Below are positions 14,500 to 19,093 of a stretch of 64,000 bases of DNA, one piece after another. The translations under genes and the position numbers were made by a program. Numbering within the stretch: position 1 is the first letter of the stretch; the number at the start of each line of letters is the position of its first letter. The stretch is from Escherichia coli (GTDB lineage Bacteria; Pseudomonadota; Gammaproteobacteria; Enterobacterales; Enterobacteriaceae): the NCBI RefSeq assembly GCF_003019035.1, contig NZ_CP027447.1. One strand, written 5' to 3'. The notes under the pieces were generated by a model. That model searched no databases, was not told where the DNA came from, and saw only the letters and a program-made list of their open reading frames with translations.

Positions 14500-14703
14500 A
14501 TGGCAATTAAGCATTTTCCTGTCGTTCGTTTTACCTCCAGAGGACGTGAATACGAAGTCGACGAACGCCTGATTACCACAATCGACAAACACCGTTCAGA
14601 AAAGGATGCACATCACATCTATCTCACTGACGGCACTTACTTCTGCGCCACGAATGTGGTGCAGGTGAACCTTATCCGACAGGTACAGGAGTCACGCAGA
14701 TGA
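14500..14703 (+). CDS. Hypothetical early protein
   Basis: 67-aa ORF preceded by AAGGAGG. Its stop overlaps the next start. Confidence 0.6.
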   Translation: MAIKHFPVVRFTSRGREYEVDERLITTIDKHRSEKDAHHIYLTDGTYFCATNVVQVNLIRQVQESRR

Positions 14704-14945
14704 CCATTCTGGATTATATCGCTGCCAATCCGGGGTGTAGCGGTGGAGAAATCGCCGCAGCACTGAATACCCCAACCACAGCCATTAATGCGGAGTTACG
14801 CCGACTCTGGCGCAGCGGTTCAGTCATAAGAAAAGAGCGCAAAACAGGCGGTCGCTTTTCTTACCAGATAAACCCGATGCCGTTCGGGTGCGGCAATCCA
14901 CTTACCAACATGTTTAACCAGCTACTGAAGGAAGCCAGAGCATGA
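14700..14945 (+). CDS. Small winged-helix-like DNA-binding protein (hypothetical)
   Basis: 81 aa. The segment ILDYIAANPGCSGGEIAAALNTPTTAINAELRRLWRSGSV looks like a MarR/wHTH recognition unit. Translationally coupled on both sides. Confidence 0.55.
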   Translation: MTILDYIAANPGCSGGEIAAALNTPTTAINAELRRLWRSGSVIRKERKTGGRFSYQINPMPFGCGNPLTNMFNQLLKEARA

Positions 14946-15241
14946 GCGCCATCAACCACCAGGAATTACGCGAACTGGCAACTGACCTTCAACGAATGGC
15001 AACGCATCAAAAATTACTGGCGTTTCGCGCAACGCTCTCGCCGTCTGCTGTGCTGGCACTGCTGGATGAGCTGGAGCACGCCAGAACCACGGCTCCTGCC
15101 ATTCGCCTGACACTCCATCATGAAATCGCCGATTTCTGCGCGACGTTGGAGGCACCAGGCGAACCGGAAACGCCGGAAGCAATACAGCAAGAGCTGCTGC
15201 AACGCATTGACAAGGTTTTTGATTTTTTTCTGAACCAGTAA
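14942..15241 (+). CDS. Hypothetical early protein
   Basis: 99-aa acidic helical ORF coupled to the upstream gene. Confidence 0.55.
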   Translation: MSAINHQELRELATDLQRMATHQKLLAFRATLSPSAVLALLDELEHARTTAPAIRLTLHHEIADFCATLEAPGEPETPEAIQQELLQRIDKVFDFFLNQ

Positions 15242-15334
15242 GAAACCAGAACATGCACACACAAAAAAACCGCTTGCCATGCCGCAATCAGTCAGGTTAC
15301 ATTTCCGCTGCACCTCACAAAACGGGTGCCGGGT

Positions 15335-15358
15335 TTCGCAGCCTGCTGACTACACAAG
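15335..15358 (+). promoter_or_regulatory. Upstream target-like copy (TTCGCAG ... CTACACAAG) complementary to the c4-like RNA
   Basis: TTCGCAG (15335-15341) and CTACACAAG (15350-15358) are exact complements of 15479-15485 and 15464-15472. Confidence 0.5.
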
Positions 15359-15363
15359 CGCAC

Positions 15364-15384
15364 AACCGCGCCAGCGGTTTTTTT
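15364..15384 (+). terminator. Rho-independent terminator
   Basis: Stem AACCGC/GCGGTT, loop GCCA, followed by T7. Confidence 0.65.
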
Positions 15385-15425
15385 GTGCGTACTGTATTGC
15401 CACGTTTTTTTCGCGTCAGAATTAT

Positions 15426-15506
15426 GGCGGGGCGTACGGGGCCGACTTCGGTCGGGCCGGGTTCTTGTGTAGCCGGTACTGCGAACCTCGTACGTCTCGC
15501 CACCCA
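15426..15506 (+). ncRNA. Candidate c4/CI-type antisense regulatory RNA (about 80 nt, three-way junction)
   Basis: A 14-16-bp closing stem (15426-15441 with 15486-15501) contains three G-U pairs that are valid only for a plus-strand RNA. It encloses a UUCG-tetraloop hairpin (15440-15458) and a second hairpin (GGTTC/GAACC, 15460-15487). The loop of the second hairpin carries CUUGUGUAG and CUGCGAA, which are complementary to sites upstream and downstream. The 3' tail is ACCCA (RCCA-like). No ORF. Confidence 0.5.
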
Positions 15507-15510
15507 CAGT

Positions 15511-15553
15511 TTCGCAGCTCTGGATGGTGAGTTTTCACAACTTACTACACAAG
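15511..15553 (+). promoter_or_regulatory. Downstream antisense target overlapping the RBS of the 76-aa ORF
   Basis: TTCGCAG (15511-15517) and CTACACAAG (15545-15553). The latter overlaps the AAGGGG Shine-Dalgarno, 7 nt before the ATG at 15564. Confidence 0.5.
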
Positions 15554-15563
15554 GGGCCACACC

Positions 15564-15794
15564 ATGGCAAACCGCAAACCACACCGCGCTATCGCGGAGC
15601 GTCGTCACATCCAGACTGAAATCAACCGCAGACTTTCCCGCGCATCACGCGTCGCGCAAATCATGCACATCAATATGCTGCATGAGCGCAGCCACGCACT
15701 ATCAAACATTTATTCCGCCTCTGTTTTCAGCTATCTGGCGGATGATCTGCACGAGCTTCAACAGCTCATCCAGCAGCAAAACAAACTCCATTAA
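15564..15794 (+). CDS. Hypothetical 76-aa protein (positional analogue of icd downstream of a c4-type RNA)
   Basis: ORF with an SD. Basic N-terminus and helical C-terminus. Family not recognised. Confidence 0.55.
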   Translation: MANRKPHRAIAERRHIQTEINRRLSRASRVAQIMHINMLHERSHALSNIYSASVFSYLADDLHELQQLIQQQNKLH

Positions 15795-15866
15795 TTCCTG
15801 TTCCGGGCCTTTCCTGCACCTTGCGGCGGGAGGCCTTCGCACATCTGTAGTAAAGAGAATTGCAGC

Positions 15867-16256
15867 ATGATTGACGCTCATGACTTCACAAGATGGGTGC
15901 GCACACAGGACACCCGTCTGGCTCCCGTTCTTCAGGGATTATTTGATCTCTACATCCGTGGTCGTGACAACAGAGCACGCACCACAAAACCAGAGAATGC
16001 AGACACCCTTTATTTCACAGTAGACGACTGCTACCGCGTGGACTTCACACCACACGGGCTGGCGTTGCACTGCCTGACACCACACGGCGAATCACTACTG
16101 GCTTATTACGACTCCCCGGCCTCCGTATTTGCGGCAATGCTGGCGCATCGCACTGCTGGCGGGTGTGCCTCGCTGAGTGAATACACCGCTGAATTTAACC
16201 GCCTTTCCACCCTCTTCTCGCAGGAGTGGCAGCGCGTGACGGGATACCAGCCATGA
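15867..16256 (+). CDS. Hypothetical 129-aa protein
   Basis: ORF whose stop overlaps the probable gene A start (ATGA). Confidence 0.55.
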   Translation: MIDAHDFTRWVRTQDTRLAPVLQGLFDLYIRGRDNRARTTKPENADTLYFTVDDCYRVDFTPHGLALHCLTPHGESLLAYYDSPASVFAAMLAHRTAGGCASLSEYTAEFNRLSTLFSQEWQRVTGYQP

Positions 16257-19093
16257 GTGAGTTTGCATGGAGCTGGAATGAACCACGGCCAGCCATTGAT
16301 CCAGCCAGATTTACGGAGCACAGGCAGGAAACTGAAACCGACCTGCAACGCGCCATCCGTTACTACCTTGAGGCGGACAAAAGGGCACAGAAAGAACAGG
16401 AAGCAAAGGAAGAAGCCTTTTTCGCACAATCCGCCATGGGTAAAAAACTCATGGCATCCCATGAGGAAGCCGGACAGCGTGAAAAGCTGGCACAGAGCAT
16501 CATCAGTAAGCGCCGGGCAACAGAACAAGACCCGGTAGCCCGTGCCTTTGCCACACTGAAGGCGCTTCCCGTTTATCTGCGAGAACCTCTGAGCCGCCAC
16601 CTCTCTTTCCTGCGCAAGAAGCAGGAAGCCGATCGTCAGAAAGGCAAAAAGAGCTGGCAGGCGGAACGCTATGCACGCGGAACCCTGCGCAAAATATTCG
16701 AACGTCTGGACCGCACCGACAGCCGCTGGCTGACACCGGGTTATCGCTCTCTTGCCGGACGCGAACGCCTGGACGATTTGCTTTACCTGCCGCAGCTCAA
16801 CAAACACCAGATACAGACGCTGGCCACCATGACGGCGGCGATGTTCAGCAGCACCTTCGAAAAACTCTGCGATGGCTTTGGCGCGACTGATGGCGAACTG
16901 ACCATGGATGTAACGCTGAAGGCGTATCAGATGCTGGCCCGCATGGCGTTACACCTGCACATCATGCCTCCACATTATGACGCACTGACAACAGATAAAG
17001 ACCGGAGGAACGAACCGGACACGGAGCTGCTGCCGGGCGCAATCCTTCGCCTGACCTGTGCGGAATGGTGGAAACGCAAACTGTGGCTGTTACGTTGCGA
17101 GTGGAGAGAAGAACAACTCCGCGCCGCCTGTCTGGTTTCCAGAAAAACATCACCCTATCTGAGCCAGGACGCGTTAAGCGAGTTTCGCGCACAGCGCGAG
17201 AAAACACGCGATTTCCTGAAAAGTTTCATGCTGGAAAATGAAGACGGGTTCACGATTGATCTCGAGACGGTGTATTACGCGGGAGTAAGTAACCCGGTTC
17301 ACCGTAAGGCAGAAATGATGGCCACCATGAAGGGACTGGAACTTCTGGCCGAAGCCCGTGGCGACAGAGCGGTGTTTCTGACTGTCACCTGCCCGTCAAA
17401 ATACCACGCAACAACGGAGAACGGTCATCCGAACCCCAAATGGAACGGGGCCACCATGCGCGACTCCAGCGATTACCTGGTTAACACGTTTTTTGCGGCG
17501 GTCCGCAAAAAACTGAACCGCGACGGCCTGCGCTGGTATGGCATCCGCACGGTGGAGCCTCACCATGACGGCACCGTGCACTGGCACATGATGGTCTTTG
17601 CTCATCCAGAAGAAATCGACAGCATCGTGGCCATCACCCGCGATATTGCCATTCAGGAAGACCGCCACGAGCTGGGCAATGATATTACTCCGCGCTTTAA
17701 GGTGGAGTATGTCGACGGCTCAAAAGGCACACCAACCAGCTACATCGCCACCTACATCGGAAAGAACCTGGACAGCCGCGCCGTGGATGGCATCGACCCG
17801 AAAACGGGCAAGCCACGCGTTGACCACGAAACCGGAAAATCAATGGCCGAGAGCGTGGAACGCGCCATCGGCTGGGCGCGCCTTCACCGGGTCCGCCAGT
17901 TCCAGTTCTTTGGTATCCCCTCCCGTCAGGTGTGGCGTGAACTGCGCCGCCTTGCCAGCCAGATGGCACGCAACCCGGAAGGCCCGCAACGGCTGAAGGA
18001 TGACGCAATGGACGCGGTACTCGCTGCCGCTGATGCCGGATGTTTTGCCACCTACATTGAGAAACAGGGTGGCGTACTTGTTCCACGCAAAGACTACCTG
18101 ATTCGCACCGCCTACGACCTCGCAGATGAGCTGAACGATTACGGCGAGCAGAGTGTACAGATTTACGGGATCTGGTCGCCGCTCATCGGGGAGTCTTCCC
18201 GCGTGTGCACGCACCCGGATAACTGGAAGCTGGTAAGACGTAAACCGGAAGCGGAAGACAGCGCCCGCGAAAATGGTTTTGACCTTCAGGGCGGCCCTGC
18301 CGCCCCTTGGACTCGTGGCAATAACTGTCCCCGTGTACAGGAAACGGACAACAACGGGACAGAACAGCCGGAAGAACGGCCAGCACCGTGGCCGCAGCTC
18401 CCTGACGGCGTTGAAGTGAACGAATGGATGCGCTCACTGAAACGGCACGAACGCCGGGCGCTGATGCGTTCGCTTCGTGACAAACAGGCAAAAAACAGCA
18501 GTGATGAAATGCAGAGCTGGACACAGAGCCGCAAACAGCAGCGGCCTTTGCCTGATAACCACGAATTACTCGCTAAAGAATGGCGGGAGTCTGCTGAATC
18601 TCTCGGCCTGCATATCGGTGAACAGCAGATGCAGCACCTGTTACGGGGCGGCAGTCTGTACGTTGACGGCAGCATCATTGCACCGCAGGGATTTGAAATT
18701 GTACGCAAACCGGATACCCGACCGGACAGCCGGATCACGCAGCTCTGGCAGCGCCTGAGCCGTAACCACGGCGTAAGCAGCACGGAGATCCGCCATAACC
18801 CGGTCGCCAGCTATCTGGAACAGCTGGCGGCATCAGACCCCGAAGCCGCCGCACGCCTGGCATCCACACTTCAGCAAGACCAGAACACCATGAAAACACC
18901 CGTTACCGTGCTTTCTGACATGCTGCGCGCCATCCGCGACGCAGAGCACGCACAGAGAATCAGTGAAACCACTGAACGCGCCCGCCGCAAAGCAGACCTG
19001 CTGCGGGGTGGCCTGACCATTGGAAACAAAAAACAGACAGAAACGGGATTCACAAATCCCGTAAATGAGCAAAAAACGCGCCGCGATATATGA
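16253..19093 (+). CDS. A: P2 gpA-type replication initiation endonuclease
   Basis: LTVTCPSKYHA and VEPHHDGTVHWHMMVF are rolling-circle HUH/Tyr motifs that parallel remembered P2 A. The start is placed at the ATG (MSEFAWSW) coupled to the upstream stop. Confidence 0.9.
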   Translation: MSEFAWSWNEPRPAIDPARFTEHRQETETDLQRAIRYYLEADKRAQKEQEAKEEAFFAQSAMGKKLMASHEEAGQREKLAQSIISKRRATEQDPVARAFATLKALPVYLREPLSRHLSFLRKKQEADRQKGKKSWQAERYARGTLRKIFERLDRTDSRWLTPGYRSLAGRERLDDLLYLPQLNKHQIQTLATMTAAMFSSTFEKLCDGFGATDGELTMDVTLKAYQMLARMALHLHIMPPHYDALTTDKDRRNEPDTELLPGAILRLTCAEWWKRKLWLLRCEWREEQLRAACLVSRKTSPYLSQDALSEFRAQREKTRDFLKSFMLENEDGFTIDLETVYYAGVSNPVHRKAEMMATMKGLELLAEARGDRAVFLTVTCPSKYHATTENGHPNPKWNGATMRDSSDYLVNTFFAAVRKKLNRDGLRWYGIRTVEPHHDGTVHWHMMVFAHPEEIDSIVAITRDIAIQEDRHELGNDITPRFKVEYVDGSKGTPTSYIATYIGKNLDSRAVDGIDPKTGKPRVDHETGKSMAESVERAIGWARLHRVRQFQFFGIPSRQVWRELRRLASQMARNPEGPQRLKDDAMDAVLAAADAGCFATYIEKQGGVLVPRKDYLIRTAYDLADELNDYGEQSVQIYGIWSPLIGESSRVCTHPDNWKLVRRKPEAEDSARENGFDLQGGPAAPWTRGNNCPRVQETDNNGTEQPEERPAPWPQLPDGVEVNEWMRSLKRHERRALMRSLRDKQAKNSSDEMQSWTQSRKQQRPLPDNHELLAKEWRESAESLGLHIGEQQMQHLLRGGSLYVDGSIIAPQGFEIVRKPDTRPDSRITQLWQRLSRNHGVSSTEIRHNPVASYLEQLAASDPEAAARLASTLQQDQNTMKTPVTVLSDMLRAIRDAEHAQRISETTERARRKADLLRGGLTIGNKKQTETGFTNPVNEQKTRRDI
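19043..19062. repeat. Palindrome ACGGGATTcacaAATCCCGT (copy 1; candidate parC/ParR site)
   Basis: 8-bp arms within a roughly 30-bp unit that is repeated 73 bp downstream. Lies in the last codons of gene A. Confidence 0.45.

Follow-up and report, generated by a model that had tools for sequence, protein, structure and literature searches.

Organization of the immunity cassette

The window analysed here is a 64-kb stretch of Escherichia coli DNA, and the element it carries is, judged by its sequence, a P88-like prophage of the P2 family, 100% and 99.6% identical to Xuanwuvirus records, in which Pfam identified the Cox, Derepression and GPA families. About 1,144 of 5,426 complete E. coli genomes carry the stretch with the cassette described below. 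The relevant features, with plus-strand coordinates unless the strand is omitted, are as follows.

14700-14945, MarR-type winged-helix gene just upstream of the cassette
14942-15241, plus strand, last early-operon ORF before the cassette, Ead/Ea22-like, with its stop 11 nt before the eta-like ATG
15253-15870, plus strand, eta/Ash-like ORF of 205 aa (Pfam Phage_ASH, 26.5 bits with the cut-off at 26; PHROG matches at 1e-15)
15274-15303, plus strand, predicted internal sigma-70 promoter (-35 TTGCCA at 15274-15279, 18-nt spacer, -10 TACATT at 15298-15303)
15310-15384, plus strand, IsrK/P4-SeqA-type sRNA (Rfam RF01394 at 64.1 bits, gathering threshold 50)
15335-15341 and 15350-15358, plus strand, upstream target copy inside the sRNA: a1 (TTCGCAG) and b1 (CTACACAAG)
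15364-15384, plus strand, intrinsic terminator of the IsrK/SeqA-like RNA, AACCGC-gcca-GCGGTT-T7 (terminator scan and Rfam isrK match)
15420-15507, plus strand, c4/P4-CI-type antisense RNA (Rfam RF01695 at 83.2 bits, gathering threshold 45)
15424-15426, plus strand, in-frame ATG within the eta/Ash-like ORF, a kil/orf45-like nested start
15464-15472 and 15479-15485, plus strand, b' (CTTGTGTAG) and a' (CTGCGAA) of the c4 RNA
15511-15553, plus strand, downstream target copy: a2 (TTCGCAG, 15511-15517) and b2 (CTACACAAG, 15545-15553)
15564-15794, plus strand, gene for a derepression-family protein of 76 aa (Pfam PF25738, 32.5 bits with the cut-off at 27; PHROG 3688, 1e-46)
15867-19093, plus strand, orf129 (15867-16256) and the gpA-type replication endonuclease gene (ATG at 16253; Phage_GPA, 437 bits)

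The eta/Ash-like ORF begins upstream of the internal promoter and spans it together with the sRNA, the c4 RNA and the a2/b2 copy, the arrangement of a P4-type cassette in which such an ORF covers seqA, CI and seqC. Its frame was open in 115 of 123 unique cassettes, in 105 of them in the same phase, compared with 37 of 123 for the minus strand and 20% for shuffled sequences. The derepression gene, presumably the target of c4 control, is nested within this ORF in a different frame, and the downstream order of derepression and replication genes again follows P4, with the difference that the replication gene belongs to Phage_GPA and is not the P4 alpha primase. ATGA overlaps link the ORFs starting at 14500, 14700 and 14942 and, past the 11-nt gap, those starting at 15253, 15867 and 16253, so that the eta-like stop overlaps the ATG of orf129 and orf129 in turn overlaps the gpA-type gene. 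No convincing terminator was found on the plus strand between cox and the left arm of the repeat described below, and we infer that transcription from the early operon would read into the cassette. The genes that such transcription, and translation, must reach are orf129 and the gpA-type gene.

The isrK model was matched over its full length, with two 5' hairpins and a terminator. Both hexamers of the predicted promoter are invariant, the spacer between them varies among lineages, and the pair occupies the same position as the TTGATT/TACACT pair of lambdoid IsrK loci. The promoter ends 7 nt before the start of the isrK model, which places the predicted transcription start near 15310. A candidate promoter further upstream, with TTGACA at 15208, was rejected for want of an acceptable -10 at 16-18 nt spacing.

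In the c4 RNA, which scores above its Rfam threshold, CTTGTGTAG and CTGCGAA are complementary to CTACACAAG and TTCGCAG at both target copies, of which b2 extends into the Shine-Dalgarno region ahead of the derepression gene. When P88 is compared with the window, a1/b1, a'/b' and a2/b2 are seen to change in concert and to stay complementary. What an earlier sequence-only reading of this DNA had called a c4-like module is, by its Rfam matches, an immunity cassette of the c4/P4-CI type.

A long-range inverted repeat around the sRNA promoter and body

The starting point of our analysis was the observation that ACACACAAAAAAACCGCT (15257-15274) is complementary at 17 of 18 positions to AGCGGTTTTTTTGTGCGT (15373-15390). 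This was confirmed, and a repeat search extended the arms to 21 nt with 90% complementarity (19/21, including 15 contiguous perfect pairs), at 15257-15277 and 15370-15390 with 92 nt between them. It is the sole inverted repeat of at least 17/18 with a spacer of 20-200 nt in the entire window; 40 composition-preserving block shuffles of the window yielded no repeat of at least 17/18, and the naive chance expectation is about 0.01 per window. The repeat is real. Our literature search found nothing on it or on P88-type RNA immunity. Three segments are needed to describe its pairing.

15257-15277, plus strand, left arm (L), with its core CACAAAAAAACCGCT at 15260-15274
15358-15369, plus strand, local partner (P) of the right arm: GCGCAC (15358-15363, outer helix) and AACCGC (15364-15369, terminator 5' half)
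15370-15390, plus strand, right arm (R): terminator loop GCCA, 3' half GCGGTT, U-tract T7 (15378-15384) and flank GTGCGT (15385-15390)

Several elements overlap in L. It sits directly before the predicted sRNA promoter and runs into the -35 hexamer, its A7 run falls at about -47 to -41 of that promoter, and it forms codons 2-7 (or 8) of the eta/Ash-like ORF, the start codon of which stands 4 nt before it. The sequence-only reading made no mention of this ORF. Among 16 diverse sequences of family A, the family of this P2-type phage, the L core is unchanged, and homology to other genomic contexts begins at 15244-15260 and never within the core. In sequence L resembles P with extra A's (ACACAC-A7-CCGC-TT-GCCA against GCGCAC-AA-CCGC-GCCA). 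As a terminator for the minus strand L was rejected, as no hairpin directly precedes its T-run, it is not among the hits of the terminator scan, and that strand has no genes here whose transcription it could end.

Predicted folds with and without the left arm

The segment at 15364-15384 consists of a G+C-rich hairpin with a U-tract directly after it, and its 3' half and U-tract do lie in the right arm, as had been proposed. In RNA starting at 15310, which lacks L, the terminator hairpin and the P:R helix as a whole were predicted to pair with a probability of 0.9-1.0, the outer GCGCAC of P pairing with GTGCGT in read-through RNA. In RNA containing L, equilibrium folding gave an L:R pairing probability of about 1.0 and a terminator hairpin probability of about 0 in every context, which supports the earlier suggestion of two mutually exclusive folds. 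L:R already prevails with no more of R than AGCGG available (at 15377, 0.90 for L and 0.04 for P), and with the 3' end at 15384 it is about 7 kcal/mol more stable than the local hairpin (-53.7 versus -46.7).

To follow the folding of growing chains we combined equilibrium prefixes with findpath barriers, the latter being heuristic upper bounds. On that footing, leaving the terminator hairpin for the long helix costs 9-12 kcal/mol as long as the 3' end lies at or before 15384, and about 5 kcal/mol once 15390 has been transcribed out. Because the barrier is high until 15384 and low at 15390, the L:R helix probably forms only after the termination decision. Before R exists, the first 26 nt, AUG and L included, are predicted to be unpaired, and folding further predicts a pairing of inner L and CAAGCG (15355-15360). 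In the L:R state the eta-like AUG has an unpaired probability of 0.10-0.34, the helix beginning 4 nt past it.

The earlier proposal that this long hairpin is a terminator/antiterminator switch is supported only in part. A classical antiterminator must capture the 5' half of a terminator ahead of the synthesis of the 3' half. L shares the sense of the 5' half, and the segment it can pair with runs from the loop through the 3' half and U-tract into the flank beyond (15370-15390), so it does not sequester the 5' half in advance and is not a classical antiterminator. L also precedes and overlaps the predicted -35, so RNA made from the sRNA's own promoter would lack L and could not switch, and only RNAs that enter the cassette from the early operon would contain it. 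The repeat encloses the upstream TTCGCAG/CTACACAAG copy as described, but it does not sequester it, the unpaired probabilities of a1 and b1 being 0.66 and 0.88 in the long hairpin and 0.68 and 0.80 in the free sRNA. We concluded that the inverted repeat probably marks read-in transcripts rather than serving as a classical antiterminator.

Arms in other cassette families

Relatives were sampled with DNA patterns of the c4 core in viral contigs, which gave 161 new loci; a protein-based search of genome contigs for relatives of the derepression protein returned only 3 near-identical loci. In L074, L040 and the L069/L089/L133 family, a distal arm just upstream of the -35, complementary to the 3' side of the family's own terminator, dominated the prediction. 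The arm sequences differ among families, for example GCGACAGTT-A6-GAGCTTG versus CAAGC-GTC-T6-GTTGTCGC, and in the L069/L089/L133 family the eta-like ATG again stands directly 5' of the arm. Compared with the terminators of other families, the L089/L069/L133 and L040 arms rank 0-3 of 28 on their own. Similar arms occur in two other cassette families, and not in the P4-type or lambdoid ones: the lambdoid IsrK cassettes in the sample have no arm upstream of the promoter, the P4-type cassettes have at that position a T-run that is unable to pair with the U-tract, and in the remaining P4-like cassettes any arm is weak at best and its distal pairing loses out. The absence of the helix from lambdoid and P4-type cassettes implies that it is dispensable for cassette function. 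Most families have an A-run or a T-run at the position of the A7 in L.

Within family A, 99% of the P:R cells are paired, with wobble-compatible one-sided changes. The L:R helix found no covariation support in that family, 13 of its 21 pairs being invariant and only one showing a double change, and its outer pairs decay in some lineages (P88-type and L130). A permutation test across families, limited to the outer 10 nt, gave p = 0.06 with representatives that are not independent, and we do not claim proven covariation between families. Upstream context was rejected as a discriminator, as co-oriented upstream ORFs occur whether or not a family has the arm. The ORF of L004-type genomes begins about 500 nt further upstream, so the adjacency of arm and start codon is not universal.

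Possible roles of the repeat

We tentatively favor, while conceding that it may well prove wrong, the reading that the repeat is a fold-back helix that can exist only in transcripts from the early operon of the P88-like prophage. The setting would be a cassette of the P4 type, in which the eta/Ash-like ORF, an internal constitutive promoter, the IsrK/SeqA sRNA with its terminator and the c4/CI RNA are followed by the second target copy at the ribosome-binding site of the derepression gene and then by the replication genes. Transcripts from the internal promoter would begin near 15310 without L, use the local hairpin at 15364-15379, and end there as the sRNA or continue beyond it. Upstream transcripts would carry L, and until the terminator is synthesized the A/C-rich arm would be single-stranded and the eta-like start codon open. 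Once R and GTGCGT have left the polymerase, L would displace the local 5' half, and a helix of about 18-21 bp would bury the eta-like start region and dissolve the terminator hairpin. Only read-in RNAs already under translation, by ribosomes handed over from the upstream ORF or loaded on the nascent RNA as for P4 eta, would then proceed through the cassette into the replication genes. Untranslated read-in RNAs would be locked, and may be terminated more efficiently or cut because of the A7:U7-extended duplex on the terminator 3' half.

A broader form of this proposal is that in several P4-type cassette families an arm placed right before the internal promoter, where the eta-like ORF begins, re-pairs the 3' side of the terminator only in read-in RNA and so discriminates transcripts by promoter of origin, with their fate (termination, processing or entry into the replication genes) tied to eta-like translation; we consider it possible, though on balance doubtful.

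Against the fold-back reading stands the view, which we think somewhat unlikely, that the repeat has no function at the RNA level. L would be kept as a UP-element-like A7, as the region upstream of the -35, as eta-like codons 2-7 and as an unstructured A/C-rich translation start, and the complementarity would be a relic of an old duplication of the terminator 5' half, or would be maintained by template-switch correction between the arms. UP elements, A/T-rich and located at about -40 to -60, stimulate promoters by way of the C-terminal domain of the RNA polymerase alpha subunit; the A7 sits where the proximal subsite would be, and such an element would account for it equally well. The A-runs or T-runs of most families at this position, including a P4-type T-run that could not pair with a U-tract, fit this view, as do the resemblance of L to P with extra A's, the lack of informative covariation within family A, and the restricted distribution of the helix, which is missing from lambdoid and P4-type cassettes and loses as a distal pairing in other P4-like ones. 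It does not account for a complementarity that goes far beyond an A-run facing a T-run, with its 15 contiguous perfect pairs and none like it among the shuffles, nor for the part of L that is not A/T (CCGCT, CAC, GC), which has no known promoter role, nor for the match of sequence-distinct families (L089/L069/L133 and L040) to their own, different terminators.

A second alternative, in our opinion unlikely, is that L acts as a second, distal 5' half that strengthens the terminator for read-in RNA and so insulates the cassette and the replication genes against upstream transcription that is not translated, or that it creates an RNase III site at which read-in RNA is severed at the cassette boundary. 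The A7:U7 extension would draw the RNA from the hybrid, the layout resembles a bidirectional-type terminator of A-tract, stem and U-tract with a 92-nt insertion in its loop, and the stability advantage of L:R over the local hairpin at 15384 points the same way. Nonsense mutations in P4 eta lead to premature termination of transcripts from the upstream promoter, which also agrees with it, and the duplex, at 18-21 bp, is near the RNase III minimum. The local hairpin forms first, though, a kinetic objection shared with the next alternative; the RNA exit channel may be too narrow, when the decision falls, for a bulky domain of three helices that begins 5 bp above the U-tract; and a strong block would separate the replication gene from the early promoter unless translation overrides it.

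Less likely again is the antiterminator of the sequence-only reading limited to read-in RNA, in which L would capture R as it emerges, block the hairpin and let early-operon transcription past the sRNA terminator, with RNA from the internal promoter terminating. The equilibrium preference for L with only AGCGG exposed speaks for this; L also matches the terminator loop (GC.A), which is made before the 3' half, and does so perfectly in the L086 and L106 variants. The cassette lies between the early promoter and gpA, and the arms are found in family A and not in lambdoid phages. To our knowledge P2-type phages, unlike lambdoid ones, have no antiterminator protein of the N or Q type, so a bypass of the terminator would be useful to them. 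Intrinsic termination, however, is driven by the duplex on the 3' half adjoining the U-tract, and L on the 3' half and U-tract still leaves a transcript-releasing duplex there; we know of no antiterminator that pairs with these parts of a terminator. The local tetraloop hairpin would also nucleate far faster than a 92-nt domain closes, inner L would already be engaged with CAAGCG, the barrier of 9-12 kcal/mol covers the decision window, and translation of the eta-like ORF already supplies the read-through mechanism documented in P4.

Finally, it is very improbable that the arms, perhaps together with P, are operators at which a phage DNA-binding protein loops out the internal promoter: both arms hold an identical 14-mer (CACAAAAAAACCGC) in opposite orientation with centres 116 bp apart, about 11 helical turns and hence in phase, a MarR-type gene lies just upstream and L overlaps the upstream region of the promoter, but neither arm is palindromic by itself, R is fully accounted for as a terminator, other families keep the complementarity with different sequences and run lengths and no common motif, and the binding protein is hypothetical.

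Comparison with known systems

The closest parallel to the cassette is the immunity region of the satellite phage P4 (eta/kil, PLE, seqA, CI RNA, seqC, epsilon and alpha). In both, an Ash/eta-type ORF begins before the internal promoter and covers the RNA genes, a SeqA/IsrK-type element ends in a terminator, and a CI/c4-type RNA faces two target copies to which it is complementary. Both also have a derepression gene (epsilon-type) followed by replication genes, and an upstream gene placed for translational coupling. Here, in contrast, the host is a complete P2-family phage (Xuanwuvirus) and not a satellite. The P4-type relatives examined also differ in having a T-run and not an A-run upstream of the -35 and no L, with a duplex to their own terminator of -4 to -9 kcal/mol (about -21 at L053). 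A fold-back helix is, as far as we know, no part of the described P4 mechanism. The published P4 account has eta beginning upstream of the internal constitutive promoter, translated only from the upstream promoter and coupled to the upstream gene, its translation preventing termination (PMC10111431).

Salmonella Gifsy-1, with IsrK, orf45 (STnc1160) and anrP, resembles the window: its IsrK sRNA has a promoter of its own and a terminator that leaks, the longer read-through isoform contains a c4-like RNA and an antirepressor-type gene, and long-range alternative structures control translation (PMC4825925). Those structures form within the PisrK transcript, between the middle of IsrK and the 3' part of orf45 (PMC4825925), whereas the extra arm here lies outside the sRNA transcript.

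The immI region of P1 and P7 (c4 RNA, a1/b1, a2/b2 and icd-ant) is similar in that its antisense RNA recognizes targets through two short sequences, one target copy lying upstream and the other downstream on top of a ribosome-binding site, and in that its specificity types differ by coordinated changes at all three places, as the window and P88 do. The context here is instead a P2-type early operon. In immI itself, no inverted repeat flanking a terminator is known to us.

The trp leader, T-boxes and riboswitches likewise have two mutually exclusive helices with one terminator strand in common, but the competitor here acts on the 3' half and U-tract from about 100 nt upstream and outside the regulated sRNA transcript, and no sensing element beyond possible ribosome occupancy was identified.

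For the logic of the fold-back reading the nearest precedents are not homologous. In the fold-back inhibition of IS10/Tn10, a sequence upstream of the element's own promoter, present only in read-in RNA, pairs downstream, so that such RNAs do not behave like those of the element itself, and the maturation gene of MS2 shows kinetic occlusion of a start site that is open only on the nascent chain. If the predicted promoter is correct, the upstream sequence here would also occur only in read-in RNA; the partner differs in being the 3' half of a terminator, and the start that would be occluded belongs to an ORF of read-in RNAs only.

Implications

Cassettes of the IsrK/SeqA and c4/CI kind decide between lysogeny and replication in P4-like satellites, in P1 and P7, in many lambdoid prophages and, here, in those of the P2 family. 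How transcripts from upstream operons pass or stop at such cassettes is understood only for P4, with translation of eta as the key. Should the repeat have no function, it would show clearly how a striking long-range complementarity can arise where the constraints of a promoter, a coding frame and a terminator overlap. A fold-back helix that works as proposed would be a compact, protein-free means of distinguishing read-in transcripts from the cassette's own and a simple design for insulating nested transcription units in synthetic constructs, and would account for the presence of a P4-style immunity unit amid the early operon of a P2-type phage.

The inverted repeat and the RNA cassette

Sequence comparison confirmed the 18-bp inverted repeat proposed in the sequence-only reading, with ACACACAAAAAAACCGCT (15257-15274) complementary to AGCGGTTTTTTTGTGCGT (15373-15390) save for one A·C mismatch (17 of 18 positions), and a repeat search lengthened the match to 21 nt (90%; left arm, 15257-15277; right arm, 15370-15390). 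No other inverted repeat in the whole 64-kb window reached 17/18 with a spacer of 20-200 nt, and 40 block shuffles preserving local composition yielded no comparable one. The terminator whose 3' half and U-tract had been placed in the right arm was recovered by a terminator scan, and the c4-like module corresponds to an Rfam C4 match. The left arm runs in the sense of the terminator 5' half and is complementary to the 3' half and U-tract.

Features of the cassette region
15253-15870, + strand: eta-like ORF (ATG 15253, stop 15870); the left arm is its codons 2-7, and it spans the promoter, isrK element, c4-like RNA and second target copy
15274-15303: promoter-like site, TTGCCA (15274-15279), 18-nt spacer, TACATT (15298-15303), ending 7 nt before the isrK model start
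15310-15384: isrK RNA (Rfam RF01394, 64.1 bits)
15370-15390: right arm, with loop, 3' half and T7 of the terminator-like site AACCGC-gcca-GCGGTT-T7
15420-15507: C4 antisense RNA (Rfam RF01695, 83.2 bits)

Two other inverted repeats were seen nearby. One of 29 nt with 79% complementarity joins 15376-15404, in the terminator U-tract region, to 15963-15991 in orf129; the other is a perfect 15-nt repeat, CTGCTGGATGAGCTG / CAGCTCATCCAGCAG, between an Ead-like ORF (15059-15073) and the derepression gene (15762-15776), with 688 nt between. Since the upstream gene of phage P88 differs, the latter is no general feature, and it may be due to chance.

The gene order is a repressor-like HTH gene on the minus strand, then cox and small ORFs on the plus strand, the cassette and the gpA replication gene, and phages PhiR44_2 and P88_4B11 (Xuanwuvirus, Peduoviridae) are 100% and 99.6% identical to the window at the cassette region. 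In the P4 literature, seqA is Rfam IsrK and the CI RNA is Rfam C4 (PMC3632133; PMC4825925). Both recognition sequences of the c4-like RNA, CTTGTGTAG and CTGCGAA, find their complements in the upstream copy within the isrK element and in a second copy (15511-15553). This second copy overlaps the ribosome-binding site of a gene for a 76-aa protein that belongs to the Pfam 'Derepression' family. In phage P88 the cassette recurs with another specificity, its upstream copy, antisense RNA and downstream copy being altered together with complementarity kept. Across the P88-like group of cassettes (family A), including the window, L002 and many IMG/VR loci, there are at least eight specificity types in which the upstream copy (15334-15358), antisense RNA (15464-15485) and downstream copy (15510-15553) shift in concert (for example TTTCGCAG / CTACACAAG; ATTTCCAC / CAACTACAG; ATTGGAAC / CAACCAAAG; ATTCTCAA / ...CAGAGCAAAG), a pattern resembling P1/P7 heteroimmunity. 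On one IMG/VR contig (L089, 1195-2052), three C4 and two isrK copies lie in tandem within a single 451-aa open frame, apparently an immunity-cassette array.

The eta-like frame and the predicted internal promoter

The eta-like ORF matches Pfam Phage_ASH (26.5 bits, cut-off 26) and, at 1e-15, several PHROG families. A frame is open over the cassette in 115 of 123 unique collected cassettes, 105 of which share its phase relative to the c4 core, compared with 37 of 123 on the opposite strand and 20% in shuffled sequence. On the plus strand, ATGA stop/start overlaps join 14500-14703, 14700-14945 and 14942-15241; an 11-nt gap precedes the eta-like ATG, and ATGA overlaps then join the eta-like ORF, orf129 (15867-16256) and gpA (ATG 16253), so that the eta-like ORF looks like a translational bridge over the RNA cassette. 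Nested within this ORF, in a different frame, is the derepression gene (15564-15794). No convincing plus-strand terminator was found from cox to the left arm. In P4, eta starts 5' of an internal promoter that is constitutive; it is translated only on transcripts of a promoter lying upstream, in coupling with the gene before it, and this translation blocks termination (PMC10111431). The eta-like ORF of the window has the same arrangement. The primary paper on the P4 arrangement is reportedly that of Forti et al. 1999.

The c4-like RNA has a conserved leader, AUUAUGG, that contains an ATG in frame with the eta-like ORF (15424-15426); a promoter-like TTGCCA-17-AATTAT (15397-15425) overlaps this ATG. 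This ATG, also present in other enterobacterial families and the Rfam consensus, is likely the counterpart of P4 kil or Gifsy-1 orf45. In E. coli JNEC-KY179 (L004, 973-2127) and relatives, RefSeq places a hypothetical gene on the minus strand (973-1497) immediately upstream of the cassette, over DNA whose plus strand keeps the eta-like frame open for 370 aa; an 'ash family protein' is annotated at the equivalent place in other genomes, and this is probably an annotation conflict.

Both predicted promoter hexamers are invariant in 16 diverse family A members, with a spacer wholly different in three lineages; in lambdoid IsrK loci the corresponding position is occupied by TTGATT / TACACT. Salmonella IsrK has its own promoter, and a fraction of its transcripts pass the terminator (PMC4825925). 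Because the promoter-like site lies just 5' of the isrK model, the left arm would be upstream of the sRNA start and overlap the predicted -35. Its A7 run falls at about -47 to -41, the consensus position of an UP element.

Predicted folds

The minimum-energy structure of 15250-15400 folded alone is the long hairpin (-57.1 kcal/mol, z = -4.3). For RNA that begins at 15310, the local terminator hairpin had a predicted probability of 0.9-1.0; when the left arm was included (contexts from 15250-15384 up to 15000-15620), the long helix between the arms rose to about 1.0 and the local hairpin fell to about 0. Even with only AGCGG of the right arm exposed (3' end 15377), the long helix was favored (0.90 vs 0.04). 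The two folds suggested earlier are thus mutually exclusive at equilibrium, but the left arm would be absent from RNA of the internal promoter (predicted start about 15310). Nor is the upstream target copy sequestered as claimed: its two segments, a1/b1, are enclosed but stay unpaired, with unpaired probabilities of 0.66 / 0.88 in the long-hairpin fold vs 0.68 / 0.80 in the free sRNA. In read-through RNA only, an outer helix, GCGCAC (15358-15363) with GTGCGT (15385-15390), lengthens the local hairpin and brackets the terminator and U-tract. Almost every cassette family has an equivalent helix (such as GACAC / GTGTC or GGACG / CGTCC).

With the long helix formed, the eta-like AUG is predicted to be mostly paired (unpaired 0.10-0.34). 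As long as the right arm has not been synthesized, the AUG and outer left arm (to 15270) are predicted to be single-stranded, while the inner left-arm CGCUUG (15271-15276, including the first -35 bases) would pair with CAAGCG (15355-15360). The latter comprises the b1 3' end and the start of the outer helix, and its pairing with 15271-15276 would enclose the two IsrK hairpins.

By a heuristic estimate, the barrier from hairpin to long helix is 9-12 kcal/mol with a 3' end at or before 15384 and about 5 kcal/mol once 15390 has emerged. Intrinsic termination is decided with the U-tract still in the hybrid, and is triggered by a duplex on the 3' half with any partner. This mechanism, the predicted folds and barriers, and the pairing of the left arm with the 3' half of the terminator together argue against a classical antiterminator role for the arm. 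The long helix would probably form after polymerase release or passage.

Comparison across cassette families

IMG/VR yielded 161 new loci through c4-core patterns, and annotated records and a genome scan added eight; the 112 first-scan cassettes with adequate upstream sequence formed 29 groups at 80% identity. In family A the arm is always present, with a duplex to its own terminator of -27 to -33 kcal/mol, including the diverged L004 and L074. Among 1,144 complete E. coli genomes, homology to other contexts starts at 15244-15260, never within the core of the left arm (15260-15274). The family A helix is nearly invariant, so pair counts neither support nor oppose it; in the local hairpin and outer helix, one-sided, wobble-compatible changes preserve pairing (99% paired).

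Two more families of different sequence have an arm at the same place, directly upstream of the -35 and fitted to their own terminator, and distal pairing prevails in their predicted ensembles.

Arms in two further families
L089/L069/L133: GCGACAGTT-A6-GAGCTTG vs CAAGC-GTC-T6-GTTGTCGC, -20 to -27 kcal/mol
L040: GGACG-A4-CGCTTG vs CAGGCG..T7-CGTCC, -20 kcal/mol

In the first, the arm directly follows the eta-like ATG, which has a good Shine-Dalgarno sequence. The arm was absent from the lambdoid cassettes sampled. P4-type cassettes have a T-run at the position of the family A A-run, and in other P4-like cassettes the arms are weak or partial and distal pairing loses. Tested by permutation, the outer segment by itself gave p = 0.06, so the cross-family support is suggestive but unproven.

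In the P4-type L017, L010, L107 and L124, the T-run (CCCCTTTTTCTGGC-TTGC) lies about 35-45 nt before the isrK start, in the place of the A-run seen in family A and several others. Three consecutive ATGs open eta in P4-type cassettes, matching the three candidate eta start codons of the P4 literature.

Interpretation

Our leading, though tentative, explanation is that the repeat forms a fold-back helix specific to transcripts reading in from the early operon. The main alternative, itself somewhat doubtful, is complementarity without RNA function, in which the left arm would have arisen by duplication of the terminator 5' half and been held by overlapping constraints, namely the UP-like A-run, the -35 flank, codons and an open translation start. 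It seems unlikely that the left arm, as a distal 5' half, makes a "stronger terminator" or an RNase III site, and the antiterminator proposed earlier, limited to read-in RNA, is quite improbable. A DNA operator pair is very improbable.

The cassette itself is already known from P4 immunity, Gifsy-1 IsrK and P1/P7 immI, and its presence in P2-family phages is visible from database annotation ('ash family protein', 'derepression protein'); our literature search returned no description of the promoter-upstream arm or of its pairing with the terminator. IS10 fold-back inhibition and occlusion of the MS2 maturation-gene start are alike in logic only.

The fold-back helix would tie the eta-like start region to the terminator of the sRNA, on its 3' side. 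RNAs that are nascent or coupled to ribosomes would go on as in P4, where translation overrides termination. Untranslated read-in RNAs would be locked, their start codon being buried and their terminator region paired anew, and may also be terminated or processed.
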